Shown here: positions 32,833 through 55,391 of the stretch, in pieces
Numbering within the stretch: the first letter of the stretch is position 1
Layout of the letters: every line of letters begins with the position of its first letter
NCBI GenBank assembly: GCA_965544045.1
Contig: CBEULT010000007.1
Span: forward strand, 1 to 64,000
Source: an uncultured Thermoactinomyces sp.
GTDB lineage: Bacteria; Bacillota; Bacilli; Thermoactinomycetales; Thermoactinomycetaceae
Reading direction: 5' to 3'
Length of the DNA: 64,000 nucleotides
Program-made: the position numbers and the translations under genes
Notes under the pieces: generated by a model
Told to the model about the DNA's origin: nothing
What the model saw: the letters and a program-made list of their open reading frames with translations, nothing else
Databases searched by the model: none

Positions 32833-33082
32833 TGATCTGATCAGGGTGATGCACCATTTTCGGTCACATCGCCCTTCCTGTTTTATTCATTCACCGGTTC
32901 AGACACCTTCTTTCCTCTGTGCCATCTTTTTGAACTTTCCATCTGAACCCGCACGTTTTTTCTCTCACCTGTCATAAAATATGATTACGATAAATTCCAC
33001 TATGCTCCCTCAAAAAAAGAGATTTTCCCTTTTTCAGGACTTTGCTATGATGTCATCAGGATCAGTAAAAAGGAGGTTCACC

Positions 33083-33766
33083 ATGTCTCACAAGATCCTT
33101 GTCATTGAAGACGATACCGACATTCAGGAATTGATCCGCGAATTTCTGATGGTTCAACATTATGATGTCGATACCGCCAATGACGGAGACGAAGGTATCC
33201 GCAAATTCATGGAAAATAAACATGATTTATTGATTTTGGATATTATGCTTCCGCAAAAAGACGGTTACCAGGTATTAAAATCAATTCGCCGAATATCTTC
33301 CGTTCCCGTCATAATGTTGACAGCCTTGGGTGAAGAAACCGATCAGATCAAAGGGTTTGAACTGGGCATAGATGACTATATAACCAAGCCATTCTCTTTT
33401 CACATTTTGAATAAACGGGTTGAAGCGGTGCTGCGGAGAACATATCAGACAGAAACAACACGCAGATTGGAATATCATGAAATCATCATGGATCTGGATA
33501 GCTATTCCGTTTTTGTGGATCAACAGAAAAAAAGTTTGACAAACAAAGAGTTTGATATTTTGAAAACACTTATTGAAAACAAGGAAAGGGTTTGTTCCAG
33601 AGATCTGTTATTGAATAAAGTCTGGGGAATTGATTTTTATGGAGATCCTCGTGTAGTGGATACCCATATTAAAAATTTGCGCAAGAAACTGCGAATTCCC
33701 TATATCCACACCGTCAAAGGAGTTGGTTACAAACTTGATACTGAAAAGACAGGGCATCACCCATAA
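33083..33766 (+). CDS. OmpR-family response regulator
   Basis: REC (…ILVIEDDTD…LLILDIMLP…) + winged-helix trans_reg_C. AAAAGGAGG RBS. Confidence 0.85.
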   Translation: MSHKILVIEDDTDIQELIREFLMVQHYDVDTANDGDEGIRKFMENKHDLLILDIMLPQKDGYQVLKSIRRISSVPVIMLTALGEETDQIKGFELGIDDYITKPFSFHILNKRVEAVLRRTYQTETTRRLEYHEIIMDLDSYSVFVDQQKKSLTNKEFDILKTLIENKERVCSRDLLLNKVWGIDFYGDPRVVDTHIKNLRKKLRIPYIHTVKGVGYKLDTEKTGHHP

Positions 33767-35174
33767 AATCTTTTTGATTACCAGTGCTTTGCTGGCGCTG
33801 TCTACAACGATATTATTTGCTTCTTTTTATTTTTTACTGCCTTCATTTTATTATCAATATAAAGTTAATAACATGAATCATGGCATTCAGCAGCTATTAA
33901 ATACTGTCCGGCCATTAACCATTTCACAGGCACAGGATATTCTCTATAAATTTACCCATGATTACAATGTTCATTTGACGATTCGCGATCAGCAAGGAAA
34001 CAGGATAATTATTACCGCTGCTGATTCCCAACTTTACAGAATCCCGTCCATATCGGAAAGCAGATTTTCATCCGGGAAAGATCAGAACACTCCGCACATC
34101 CAGATTGTGGAAAGACCAATTACTTTCCAGGGAGACCAATTTATCGCCACCTTTATCGCTACCATGCAGCCAATCAATGAAGCAAGTAGCGCCATTTTGA
34201 TGTTTATGCCATATATGGCCATATTTATTCTGCTTATTTCCGTGGCGGGTGCTTTCCTTTATGCCAAACTGATTGCCCAGCCGTTACTGAAAATAAACAA
34301 GGTGGCCAAACGGATGGCCAAACTTGATTTCAGCCAGACTTGCCATCCCCATTCCGATGATGAAATCGGGGAATTGTCACAAAGTTTGAATGAACTTTCG
34401 CAAAACCTGGAGAGAACCATGTCTGAACTGAAACAGGCCAACGTTCAGTTAAAAGACGATATTCAGCGTGAACGGGAACAGGAAGCAAAACGCAGGGAAT
34501 TTATGGCCACCATTTCCCACGAACTGAAATCGCCAATTACCGCTGTCATGGGCCAACTGGAAGGCATGATTCACCGGATCGGCGTTTACAAGGACCGGGA
34601 CAAATACTTGCGCAGATCTTATATGGTGATGCAAAACATGCAGCATTTGGTAAAAGAAATCATGGAAATTTCCAAATTGGAAACCTGTACGTTTACCCCC
34701 TCAAAAAAACCGGTTGATTTAACTGCCATCATCGAGTCTGTCCTGAAAAGGCTGGACTTCTTTGGCCAGGACAAGCAATTGCAGTTAAAAACACTTCTGG
34801 AACCCGGGATAAAAGTTTATGCGGATCCGGATCTCATGCAAAAAGCGATCAGCAATATTATTCATAACGCGATGAATTATTCACCTCCTTATGAACTTGT
34901 TGAAATCAAACTGGAGCATTTGAAAAACCATATACAGCTCAGTGTGCTTAATACCGGAACTTCCATTCCCAAATCCGAACTGGACAAGACCTTTGAACCC
35001 TTTTACCGTCTGGAAAAGTCGAGAAACCGCGGTACAGGTGGAAGCGGGCTTGGGCTCTATATCGTAAAAAAAATTCTGGAAGTACATTCATTCCCTTATC
35101 AACTGGTCAATGAAAAAAAAGGTGTCCTGTTTACCATCCAATTCCCCGCCAATGAACAGCCGCCTGATTGTTAA
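33735..35174 (+). CDS. Sensor histidine kinase (2 TM, HAMP, HisKA, HATPase_c); start codon uncertain (TTG)
   Basis: H-box …ATISHELKSPIT…, N/G boxes …IIHNAMNYS…GTGGSGLGLYIVKK…. Confidence 0.8.
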   Translation: MILKRQGITHKIFLITSALLALSTTILFASFYFLLPSFYYQYKVNNMNHGIQQLLNTVRPLTISQAQDILYKFTHDYNVHLTIRDQQGNRIIITAADSQLYRIPSISESRFSSGKDQNTPHIQIVERPITFQGDQFIATFIATMQPINEASSAILMFMPYMAIFILLISVAGAFLYAKLIAQPLLKINKVAKRMAKLDFSQTCHPHSDDEIGELSQSLNELSQNLERTMSELKQANVQLKDDIQREREQEAKRREFMATISHELKSPITAVMGQLEGMIHRIGVYKDRDKYLRRSYMVMQNMQHLVKEIMEISKLETCTFTPSKKPVDLTAIIESVLKRLDFFGQDKQLQLKTLLEPGIKVYADPDLMQKAISNIIHNAMNYSPPYELVEIKLEHLKNHIQLSVLNTGTSIPKSELDKTFEPFYRLEKSRNRGTGGSGLGLYIVKKILEVHSFPYQLVNEKKGVLFTIQFPANEQPPDC

Positions 35175-35277
35175 CACCTCCTTCCGGAAAATGTCCCAAA
35201 TGCAATCCGAAAAAACTAGCCATTAGAAAATAAATTAAAAACATGCTGTTTGAATTTGAAACAATCACTTGTTCACA

Positions 35278-35341
35278 GGCTAAAGCCATGAATAGACAAG
35301 TATATAAAAAACAAGCAAATTCAAGGCTTTAGCCGTTTTTC
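35278..35341 (+). terminator. Hairpin (10-bp stem GGCTAAAGCC/GGCTTTAGCC, 37-nt loop) + T5; probable terminator of the kinase gene
   Basis: Read directly. The loop contains a 14-codon ORF (MNRQVYKKQANSRL). Confidence 0.4.
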
Positions 35342-35352
35342 AAACCCCACAT

Positions 35353-35396
35353 ATCAACATATCCACAATGTTATCCACATTATCCACAATATCTTG
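35353..35396. promoter_or_regulatory. DnaA-box repeat A: 44-bp unit with three head-to-tail DnaA boxes (ATATCCACA, TTATCCACA, TTATCCACA)
   Basis: Boxes at 35359-35367, 35371-35379 and 35380-35388. Confidence 0.6.
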
Positions 35397-35667
35397 TGGT
35401 GAACAAATATATAAAATTATTCACAAACCTTGACCGTTTATTACTTTAAAAATCGGAATAAATCCCCTGAACCCCGCTAAAAAATAAATACCAACTGCTT
35501 TTCATATGACTTTTTTGTGATTTTTTCAGGTTTAATATTTCGAATTAAAGAATGATTCGCTATGATAATAATGACACTAACCTTTTTTGTTATTTCTTAC
35601 TTTTGAAAAGGAAGTAACGAAAGGGTTAGTGCAATGGGATTGAAAGATCGGGAAAGCATTTACGCAG

Positions 35668-35708
35668 AAGGAGTCGCGCCTCTGGTTCAAGCCGACTCCT
35701 TTTTTTTA
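35668..35708 (+). terminator. Orphan intrinsic terminator (GGAGTCG…CGACTCC + T8) between the two DnaA-box repeats
   Basis: Read directly. No convincing protein-coding ORF upstream of it. Confidence 0.5.
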
Positions 35709-35737
35709 TACTTATTTTTCTGATCAACATGAAATTT

Positions 35738-35781
35738 ATCAACATATCCACAATTTTATCCACAATATCCACAATATCTTG
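35738..35781. promoter_or_regulatory. DnaA-box repeat B: 44-bp direct repeat of A (41/44 identical) with three tandem DnaA boxes
   Basis: Boxes at 35744-35752, 35756-35764 and 35765-35773. Confidence 0.6.
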
Positions 35782-35923
35782 ACCAAAGAAACAAGTTTGC
35801 TGTGACGCATAAATCACTTCCAACCCACTGAATATTATGTAACCAAAAATGCCGGCGGAACTGCACACACAGTTTATGGAATCGTTCCCAGTTCGGTCCG
35901 GGATTATAAAACTATCCAATATC

Positions 35924-36337
35924 TCAGCACAAAAAACACCTGGAAAATTCCAGTCCTGCCTTCCTCAATTCTTTCGTAAAGAATTTTTTATGAGTTTCCC
36001 TCCAATATTGATAAGTTCTGTCCCCTTCTCCTTCTGCAAAAGCAAACTCCTCTGTAACCTCATTCATCGGCATTATTTTGACATTTTCTGTTTTAATAAT
36101 CGCCACTGGTTCGTCTCTGCTGTTTAAAATAATGCTGTAATCTCCAACAGAGGGTAATGGCTCATTTTCAATTTCATAAAAAACCAATCCGGAACAAGTA
36201 GCTGTTTTAATACCGTCTATTACCAACTGGGCCAAATAGTCCGGATTATCCCCGAATTTCCATGAACTTACTGATTTTGGCTTCTCTTGATTTTGGCGCT
36301 TCCAAAATTCATCCCAATATATTTGCGATGCTTTATT
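35924..36337 (-). CDS. ASCH-domain protein
   Basis: …DGIKTATCS… ASCH core. GTG start with AAGGAGGAG RBS. Confidence 0.55.
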   Translation of the reverse strand, partial: NKASQIYWDEFWKRQNQEKPKSVSSWKFGDNPDYLAQLVIDGIKTATCSGLVFYEIENEPLPSVGDYSIILNSRDEPVAIIKTENVKIMPMNEVTEEFAFAEGEGDRTYQYWRETHKKFFTKELRKAGLEFSRCFLC

Positions 36338-36688
36338 CACTGTTCTCCTCCTTAAATAAAAAATCAGAGTATTCAACTCCATTCCAGAAATAAATCATAA
36401 CGCTCATTTTAAATTTTATAAATGGGACTTTTCCTTGAAATTTTGTTTATTATCCATAATTATATAATTATAATGATTATAAATATTATGGTATATCGGT
36501 TATTCAAAAAAAACCCATTTCTTTGTACCAATGATGCAAAACAAAACCTTCTTCAGAAAGCTTCCAAAGCGAAGGTTTTGCAAAAAGTGTGACATCCATC
36601 ACATTTAAGGGTCGGGGGATGGGTTACGATGATAAAGATCCATTCAGAGTGGGGAAAATGGAGATTATTGGAGATTGGAGATGTTACG

Positions 36689-37595: not shown

Positions 37596-37687
<92 letters not shown>

Positions 37688-39074: not shown

Positions 39075-39345
39075 ACCTCCTGAAAAAAATAAAAACCTTC
39101 CCCCCAAAAAAGGGACGGAAGGTTCCGCGTTGCCACCCTTGTTGACCCCTGGTTTTCGTCCACAGGTCCACTCTTACGAGATAACGGCTCGTTTGCCGAA
39201 AGGACACTTCAAGCGGCTTTTCCGCCTTCGTGTTTCGCTCCAAGGTGGATTCACCGGCAATTTTGGGCGATTCACACCAGCCATCGCCTCTCTGCAACAA
39301 AATTGCCAGTTACTTGCCTCTTCTTCGCGTTTGCCATTTCAAAGT
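39075..39345 (-). promoter_or_regulatory. T-box riboswitch leader of serS (T-box sequence AGGGTGGCAACGCG, terminator/antiterminator, promoter TTACAA-17-TATAAT at ~39345-39385)
   Basis: Minus-strand read: …caacaagggtggcaacgcggaaccttccgtcccttttttggggggaaggttttta…. Confidence 0.7.
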
Positions 39346-42454: not shown

Positions 42455-43963
<1,509 letters not shown>

Positions 43964-43994
43964 TCACTGTCAAGATTTGATTTGCATCAATCCT

Positions 43995-44060
43995 TTGTCC
44001 ACAGCAATACGCAAGTTATCCACAAAACACTGTGAATAACTCTGTAAAACTTGTGGATAA
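43995..44060. promoter_or_regulatory. Cluster of four DnaA boxes upstream of guaB
   Basis: TTGTCCACA (43995-44003), TTATCCACA (44016-44024), TGTGAATAA (44031-44039), TGTGGATAA (44052-44060). Confidence 0.5.
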
Positions 44061-53245: not shown

Positions 53246-53471
53246 ATCGATCCTCCTTGTTTAATGAAACTCCTTTTTGGAAAAACTGGATACAGGGAAG
53301 AATAAACCGGAGTCATGATACATATATATTTTTTATAAATGCAGTAGTAATAATAGTAGGGCCTGTGGATAATGTGGATAAGCCTTGCCAGGCAAGGTGT
53401 GGCACCTTTTTGCACCTGTGGAAAACATGTGCATATGCGTGTAACGATTATCCACACTATTCACAGAGGCA
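53246..53471. promoter_or_regulatory. oriC downstream module: AT-rich DNA-unwinding element (~53318-53360) plus DnaA boxes (TGTGGATAATGTGGATAAG 53363-53381, TGTGGAAAA, TTATCCACA)
   Basis: Read directly between dnaA and dnaN. Confidence 0.7.
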
Positions 53472-54821: not shown

Positions 54822-55391
54822 CCGAAGAACCCCCTTCCTTACAATGTTATGAACAAACTTATCCACAGGAAAAACTTCATAATTACCAAGGTTGGACTTA
54901 TTTATCAACAATATCCACAAGCTGTGGAAAACAATATCCACAGCTTGTGTTTTAATCATTCTGCAGATATCCACAGGTGTGGATATCTGCAGAATGAATA
55001 CTGTATTTATCCACAAGAAAACAAGAATAGGATATCAAAATAACCATGTGTTTACAATGGAAAATAGTAAGTTATCCACAATTTGTCACGTTAGAAACAT
55101 TTTTTTTCCACAGCTGTGTATGTTGTGGATAACTCGTGGATAAGTTTTGGATAGGAAGTGGATAACGAGAAAAATATCCACATGTGGATAAACATTCTGC
55201 TGCGGTTCCTTTTCTTGACATGCATTGTAAGTCGCCGCTATAATGATAGAGATTGTCCACGGTTTCATTACTGGACTTGAATGAAAGAAGGGAGGTATCC
55301 TGGTGCTGTTCACTGTCTTTTGGCAACTGTTGGGATTCATGGGCGGATCGGTTGTCAAAACGGGAACATAAGGCTGACCAGGTGACTTTAA
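54822..55391. promoter_or_regulatory. oriC upstream module / dnaA-rpmH promoter region with at least 10 DnaA boxes including palindromic pairs (GATATCCACAGGTGTGGATATC; ATATCCACATGTGGATAAA)
   Basis: TTATCCACA/TGTGGATAA matches at ~54859, 54911, 54935, 54967-54988, 55007, 55071, 55124, 55135, 55158 and 55175-55193. Confidence 0.75.

Follow-up and report, generated by a model that had tools for sequence, protein, structure and literature searches.

Two head-to-tail DnaA-box arrays enclose a predicted small RNA gene near the replication origin of Thermoactinomyces

The locus and its neighbours

The DNA analysed here, called the window, is a stretch of 64,000 nucleotides from an uncultured Thermoactinomyces sp. 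Between a HAMP histidine kinase gene, which follows the gene of an OmpR-type response regulator, and a convergent ASCH gene, it contains an intergenic region with two groups of DnaA boxes and a predicted small RNA gene between them (Table 1). An earlier sequence-only reading had placed these features in a convergent kinase/ASCH setting near oriC, and this is correct: the locus lies 17.5-19.8 kb from the two oriC box clusters. Past the ASCH gene come ywiC, a tRNA, and then serS with a T-box leader. The serS ORF as called (503 aa) is overextended, as can be seen from the T-box leader upstream. A scan of the window against Rfam at the gathering thresholds returned the T-box and tRNAs only.

The origin of the window is bipartite as in Bacillus, with box clusters at 54860-55191 and 53364-53456, the latter beside an AT-rich region, and the genes on the minus strand follow in the order dnaA, dnaN, recF, gyrB, gyrA. 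On the unwinding side of oriC (53320-53381, read on the minus strand), the abutting box pair TTATCCACATTATCCACA is followed by GGCC, then by repeated CTA/TTA trinucleotides that resemble DnaA-trios, then by an AT-rich stretch. The unit formed by response regulator, kinase and small RNA (32981-35707) lies on the plus strand throughout, and the origin-proximal genes serS, pdxST, dacA, guaB and gyrAB are all on the minus strand; the plus-strand unit is thus transcribed head-on to the fork coming from oriC. A smaller DnaA-box cluster is found at 43693-44060. It has five boxes (with at most one mismatch) in both orientations, four of them intergenic upstream of guaB and one within the guaB ORF, and it has a counterpart in clade B of the relatives described below (L016, 17480-17527).

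Just upstream of the left boxes there is a hairpin with arms at 35278-35293 and 35319-35334, whose stem measures 16 bp and whose loop is 25 nt long; GTTTTTC comes directly after it, and it holds a 14-codon ORF. Both the hairpin and the ORF had been pointed out in the sequence-only reading and both exist, but they are specific to the window and show no conservation in L001, L002 or L006. In the window genome, the hairpin is probably the terminator of the kinase operon.

Table 1. Features of the locus and its neighbours. Coordinates are those of the window unless another sequence is named; clades A and B are the two groups of relatives defined in the text.
Feature	Coordinates	Strand	Basis or remark
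OmpR-type response regulator	32981-33766	+	upstream neighbour
HAMP histidine kinase	33723-35174	+	upstream neighbour
Left DnaA-box module	35350-35425	+	boxes, AT-rich tail, conservation
Left module, weak box ATATCAACA	35351
Left module, strong boxes ATATCCACA, TTATCCACA, TTATCCACA	35359, 35371, 35380	+	the last box abuts the second
Left module, weak reverse box TGTGGTGAA	35395		AT-rich tail after it
Extra box TTATTCACA	35417	+	ends the left module
Variable spacer	35426-35480		about 55-170 nt in clade A
Promoter block	35481-35572	+	alignment conservation
Direct repeat TGAC-N7-TGA(C/T)	35507-35521	+	conserved in both clades
-35-like TTTCGA	35538-35543	+	17-nt spacer to the -10
Inverted repeat CGAAT-N9-ATTCG	35541-35559		overlaps the -35 and the spacer; arms conserved, centre variable
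-10 TATGAT	35561-35566	+	TATTAT in L001, TATAAT in clade B
Predicted small RNA, about 132 nt	35573-35707	+	fold, substitution pattern, terminator
5' hairpin, 22 bp	35575-35631	+	clade A only
Conserved unpaired stretch with GGGAUUGAAAGAUCGGGAAAGC	35632-35669	+
Terminator stem GGAGTCG / CGACTCC	35670-35676 / 35693-35699	+	T8 at 35700-35707
Right DnaA-box module	35722-35781	+	boxes, conservation
Right module, weak box GATCAACAT	35722
Right module, extra box TTATCAACA	35736	+
Right module, strong boxes ATATCCACA, TTATCCACA, ATATCCACA	35744, 35756, 35765	+
ASCH gene	35924-36382	-	convergent, downstream neighbour
tRNA	37601-37687	-	just downstream of serS
T-box leader	39108-39334	-	upstream of serS
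53-aa ORF (P0121)	L012 2279-2440; L015 1767-1928; L016-L019 10001-10162	+ (L012)	'hypothetical protein, unclassified Thermoactinomyces'

Two arrays of DnaA boxes

A repeat search finds two direct repeats of 45 nt at 35352-35396 and 35737-35781, identical at 43 of 45 positions (96%) and with starts 385 bp apart. They had previously been given as 44-bp repeats with 41 identical positions; the repeats themselves stand, and in that frame the identity is 42/44. The three tandem boxes ascribed to each repeat were also recovered, as three strong same-strand boxes in either copy. When boxes are searched for as TTATCCACA with up to one mismatch, all eight at the locus lie on the plus strand, and three of them are perfect TTATCCACA. 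This makes eight boxes in 450 bp where shuffled sequences lead one to expect 0.13 (Poisson P about 2e-12). The whole window holds 61 such boxes, compared to 18.5 +/- 4.2 in shuffles. In density of boxes the locus is surpassed by the dnaA-upstream part of oriC alone; the dnaA-dnaN part has five boxes.

The 18-mer at 35371-35388 is the same as the abutting box pair by the oriC unwinding region (53364-53381), and the only other matches to the element in the window are oriC's own boxes. Since the organism's own oriC uses the TTATCCACA consensus, and even the abutting 18-mer, DnaA binding to both arrays is very likely. Several consensus boxes are thus found together in an intergenic region outside oriC and close to it. 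This fits the definition of an origin-proximal DnaA-box cluster of the Bacillus type (PMC3245932), one of the possibilities that the sequence-only reading had put forward.

Relatives and age of the repeats

Relatives were found by scanning genomes with the window's kinase. Clade A consists of the window, a metagenome-assembled genome (L001, kinase 85% identical), T. mirandus (L002, 82%) and a Logan contig (L006, 88%). Clade B, in which the kinase is about 67% identical, consists of L012, L013 and L015-L019, where L016-L019 include the NCBI assemblies GCA_016055175.1 and GCA_000753855.1. L013 and L015 were retrieved from metagenomes by a promoter pattern; L014 was a chance match and was discarded, and a metagenome search with the pattern GGGATTGAAANATCGGGAAAGC gave 0 matches. 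Another Logan contig, L005, was left out as it stops 91 nt past the kinase stop codon.

The bracket formed by the two arrays is present downstream of the response-regulator/histidine-kinase operon in 7 distinct sequence versions (11 sequences) from two Thermoactinomyces clades, and the earlier concern that the repeats might be a strain-specific duplication can thereby be set aside. The gene order in L016 is asnB, spo0M, response regulator, kinase, element, serS, pdxT, pdxS, dacA, guaB, yaaC, gyrA; this synteny through to gyrA means that the origin-proximal position is conserved. Orthologues of the kinase operon exist in Paenactinomyces, Laceyella and Thermoflavimicrobium, where other genes directly follow and where there is neither a box cluster nor a match to the covariance model of the RNA.

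Between genomes, left copies are on average 92% identical to each other, the figure for right copies is 92% too, while left and right copies within a genome are 84-96% identical. One spacer between boxes reads AATT in almost every right copy, and AATG, AATT, AATC, AACC or AACT in left copies. Such copy-specific states, found across genomes, mean that the duplication predates the split of clades A and B and that the copies have not been homogenised. Judging from the alignments, then, the left and right copies evolve independently, and the repeats are old and under selection.

What surrounds the arrays is far less stable. The sequence just outside them and the spacer inside are unalignable between clades, the tail of the left module (CTTGTGGTGAA..TATATAAAATTATTCA) is conserved in clade A only, and conservation of the right trio ends directly after its last box. 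Neither strand of the spacer contains an ORF that is conserved in clade A. The arrays are 385-505 bp apart across genomes, and the right trio begins 25-36 nt past the U-tract of the RNA terminator in every one of them.

Outside the bracket, genes are gained and lost so often that the region is a hot spot for such changes, and relatives have extra genes there that are absent from the window. A small membrane ORF is found 3' of the right trio in L002 (7217-7315) and L006 (2549-2646), and a YndA_coil gene in L006 (2854-3285), probably also in L001 (from about 3351) and in L002. In L006 both of these precede the ASCH gene. In the same contig, the kinase is called as two pieces of 363 aa and 131 aa (336-1776), which is a frameshift or an assembly error.

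A predicted small RNA between the arrays

The sequence-only reading had described a rho-independent terminator between the repeats, and its stem (35670-35699) followed by T8 is indeed there; a consensus terminator scanner missed it because of the 16-nt loop. The same reading had proposed a transcript of ~250 nt ending there. The conserved promoter implies a shorter one of about 132 nt, with its start placed at about 35573/4. In the window, this RNA would fold with a minimum free energy of -45 kcal/mol (z = -4.45). RNAalifold on the four clade A sequences leaves 95.8% of cells paired, compared to 38-54% in slid controls. Four pairs are changed on both sides, including a G-C to A-U change in the terminator, although this rests on 4 sequences only and 17 of 500 shuffles reach the score. 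Many substitutions turn U-A into U-G, a change that would give C.A mismatches on the opposite strand; as they keep pairing on the plus strand only, the plus strand is the RNA strand.

After the 5' hairpin comes a near-invariant stretch, (C/U)AAUGGGAUUGAAAKAUCGGGAAAGY. In clade B the RNA is predicted to be about 85 nt long and to be without the 5' hairpin, and it retains GGGAUUGAA...CGGGAAA and a terminator; its fold is no better than that of shuffles (z = -1.0). The covariance model finds one copy per genome. Rfam has no family that matches the RNA (35480-35710, plus strand, E up to 10). Two near-misses, PreQ1 and SpF22, were rejected, as both fall outside the RNA and their E values exceed 2. 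A duplex-energy scan for targets of the RNA in the 64-kb window gave best non-self z values of about -3.6 to -4, as expected among some 8500 windows, and no target stood out from the background. A CsrA-type reading of its GGA motifs was dropped as too weak (4 GGA versus about 1.6 expected, by our own count), and so was a long-range pair proposed by RNAalifold between UGCUUUUC (35497-35504) and GGGAAAGCA, which is broken in L006 and absent in clade B.

Upstream of the RNA, the string TTTCGAAT-N6-ATGATTCG-YTAT-N-AT is invariant across both clades in the alignments. We infer that a sigma-A-like promoter, TTTCGA-17-TAT(G/T/A)AT, drives the RNA. This assignment is made from conservation and not from a scanner: the -35 matches at three of six positions, and a sigma-70 scanner called no promoter here. 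Promoter-like sites on the minus strand (35742>35714 and 35593>35565) are unconserved. At the start of the promoter block, AATAAATACCAACTGCTTTTCAT (35481-35506) is about 95% conserved in clade A and is not conserved in clade B. The palindrome over the -35 and the TGAC repeats suggest that at least one further regulator acts here, for which the neighbouring OmpR-type response regulator is a candidate.

The RNA has the features of an independent gene, with its own inferred promoter, an intrinsic terminator, and next genes that are convergent in the window and in clade B. Taken together, the promoter-like block, the RNA-type substitutions and the terminator support a conserved, terminator-ended and non-coding transcription unit between the arrays that was previously undescribed.

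A 53-aa ORF in the sister clade

In clade B, the bracket also contains a 53-aa ORF, located between the left trio and the RNA promoter in the interval that matches the spacer of the window. It lies roughly 80 nt downstream of the left trio and has a strong promoter of its own, with an extended -10 (TGATATAAT), as well as a good Shine-Dalgarno sequence. Between L012 and L015, residues 12-42 differ by 5 synonymous and 0 non-synonymous changes (counted by eye), and these all-synonymous changes in the core mark the ORF as a real gene. It is found in Thermoactinomyces only. Its only Pfam hit, McrBC, is not significant (E = 0.033; its 13.6 bits fall below the cut-off of 23.9), and there was no significant match in the PDB. 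An AlphaFold single-sequence model gives one long helix (pLDDT 91), which was not used for a fold search. A tblastn search with the ORF found no remnant of it in the window or in clade A. As there is no strong terminator between this ORF and the RNA, the clade B RNA may also be the 3' end of the mRNA of the 53-aa ORF.

Comparison with known systems

In the bipartite origin of B. subtilis, the two box clusters are reported to interact, from electron microscopy. The locus is similar to a bipartite Bacillus oriC in that a gene is enclosed by two box clusters at a distance of a few hundred bp or more, and in that the 18-mer is common to it and to the window's oriC. It differs in that the enclosed gene is not dnaA, and in that a GC cluster, a DnaA-trio run and a conserved unwinding element are all missing; the abutting pair at 35371-35388 is followed by ATATCTTGTGGTGAA without a trio run (compare oriC, 53330-53381). 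By these features, the locus is not an origin.

In E. coli, the initiator is likewise modulated by chromosomal clusters of DnaA boxes that do not code for protein, datA and DARS1/2. The boxes of DARS (a core of three) must be in opposed orientation, and datA and DARS2 need IHF or Fis. At our locus all strong boxes are on the same strand, unlike in DARS, and the DARS arrangement is thus missing. Closer to home, B. subtilis has clusters outside oriC to which DnaA binds stably and which regulate the genes beside them; their restraint of initiation varies with gene dosage and chromosome position, they are reported to behave unlike datA, and what separates active from inactive clusters is unresolved (PMC3245932). 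The present locus shares with them the intergenic consensus boxes near but outside oriC, beside lineage-specific genes. Unlike them, it is split into two near-identical 45-nt arrays with three strong same-strand boxes each, and these bracket a complete transcription unit, that of a predicted non-coding RNA. The split bracketing geometry with its non-coding cargo is an unusual feature among DnaA-box clusters.

Another obvious comparison is sda of B. subtilis, a DnaA-activated small inhibitor of sporulation kinases. Here too, an endospore former has a small gene next to DnaA boxes; in clade B the 53-aa ORF follows the left trio. However, the 53-aa ORF has no sequence similarity to Sda, the window has no such ORF, and the conserved product is a predicted RNA. 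The sequence-only reading was right that the window lacks an Sda-like ORF, and no conserved ORF of any kind was found there or in the rest of clade A. [quoted passage not shown] There are precedents for RNAs in replication and cell-cycle control, such as an antisense RNA over the dnaA 5' UTR of B. subtilis, which overlaps its target (PMC12112137), and CcnA of Caulobacter, which modulates the cell-cycle regulators CtrA and GcrA (PMC8959179). Neither RNA is known to be bracketed by DnaA-box arrays, and neither is related in sequence to the present one (no Rfam match).

Interpretation and alternatives

With moderate confidence, we take the locus to be a genus-specific, origin-proximal DnaA-box cluster, built as two head-to-tail arrays that bracket an independent gene for a structured non-coding RNA. 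DnaA would bind each array cooperatively, and the two occupied arrays would probably interact in the same way as the clusters of bipartite Bacillus origins. Such an interaction would enclose the RNA gene, and in clade B also the 53-aa gene, in a DnaA-dependent loop. The site would then hold DnaA near the origin, as the Bacillus clusters do, and the output of the enclosed genes would depend on DnaA occupancy and hence on replication status. The RNA would most likely act in trans, via the invariant purine-rich GGGAUUGAA...CGGGAAA, and the 5' hairpin probably shields it from 5' exonuclease.

From the left trio to the -10 of the RNA downstream of it, the distance is about 170-220 bp in clade A and about 390 bp in clade B, and the right trio lies past the terminator. 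As the boxes are off operator positions, the coupling is unproven. In the main rival, the arrays are purely a DnaA titration or regulatory site like the yydA-yycS and ywcI-vpr clusters of B. subtilis, and the RNA is an unrelated passenger that does not respond to DnaA. We see this as a serious possibility, if on the whole an unlikely one. It would account for boxes that are distant from the RNA promoter or past the terminator, and for a bracket whose content differs by clade, with the 53-aa ORF present or absent; the B. subtilis clusters also affect initiation independently of the neighbouring gene (PMC3245932). What it does not account for is the geometry. The short distance of 25-36 nt from the terminator to the right trio is kept in both clades, and the RNA gene is always enclosed by the array pair, whatever lies outside, when titration needs no bracket.

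The preferred reading, of a cluster that brackets an RNA gene, can be taken one step further: the bracket would be a sensor of replication status, in which DnaA occupancy, perhaps by way of a loop of about 400 bp bridged by DnaA, gates a trans-acting sRNA (and in clade B the 53-aa protein as well) and so relays initiation status to, for example, sporulation or envelope stress. We put this forward tentatively and think it rather doubtful.

It is also conceivable, though improbable, that the RNA is mainly under the control of another regulator. A dimeric factor could bind CGAAT-N9-ATTCG and the adjacent OmpR-family response regulator TGAC-N7-TGAC, with the DnaA-box arrays only as a boundary or roadblock that shields the unit from read-through and convergent transcription. 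At or ahead of the -35, the palindrome and the direct repeat are kept unchanged in both clades, and the element is always directly downstream of the one two-component operon. Against this, the orthologous operons in Paenactinomyces, Laceyella and Thermoflavimicrobium come without such an RNA, and we know of no documented roadblock role for DnaA. Control by another regulator is in any case compatible with the preferred reading and does not exclude it.

That the functional product is a peptide, either from a micro-ORF or as a type I toxin, is very unlikely. The sequence-only reading had offered a small RNA or a micro-ORF (MGLKDRESIY...), and it is the non-coding unit that turns out to be conserved. 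The micro-ORF (MGLKDRESIYAEGV...) does have an ATG (35634) after a purine-rich stretch, one that the hairpin sequesters. Clade B, however, has ACG in place of this ATG, the frame is not conserved, the length and the stop position with the C-terminus differ in every species, and five of the six substitutions within clade A are non-synonymous. A toxin is further opposed by a peptide that is not hydrophobic and by the lack of a conserved antisense promoter. A minus-strand ORF of 97 aa (35626-35919) was also considered and rejected; it has no Pfam match and translates the boxes as DIVDIVDKIVD.

The chances are just as slim that the RNA is a cis-acting leader or attenuator of a downstream gene. L002 and L006 do have a small membrane ORF and a YndA_coil gene downstream on the same strand, but the unit is just as fully conserved in the window and in clade B, where a convergent gene comes next, there is no match to a riboswitch or leader in Rfam, and a DnaA-box array separates the terminator from any downstream gene. 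Least credible of all is a mobile-element remnant or an artefact of recent duplication, in which the repeats would be attL/attR or a duplicated target site, or else a cryptic second origin: a short segment flanked by direct repeats, with an AT-rich left-module tail and an abutting box pair as in oriC, may look like either, but the element occupies the same single-copy locus in all genomes with copies that diverge independently, it has no match in plasmid and phage collections and no recombinase nearby, its boxes are not followed by a GC cluster or DnaA-trio run as they are at oriC (53330-53363), and the AT-rich tail is absent in clade B.

Significance

The bracketed cluster is a compact, conserved and easily mutated locus, in which titration, looping and transcriptional coupling could be separated by experiment. 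The host is an endospore-forming, actinomycete-like Firmicute without a recognisable sda at the locus. To the candidates for linking replication status to physiology, the locus adds an undescribed small RNA and, in clade B, a genus-specific 53-aa protein. If the sensor reading were true, Thermoactinomyces would have a functional analogue of the Sda checkpoint that is based on RNA and, to our knowledge, the first DnaA-regulated sRNA in Firmicutes. Should the coupling not be real, Thermoactinomyces would still have a genus-specific sRNA candidate and a further origin-proximal DnaA-box cluster.
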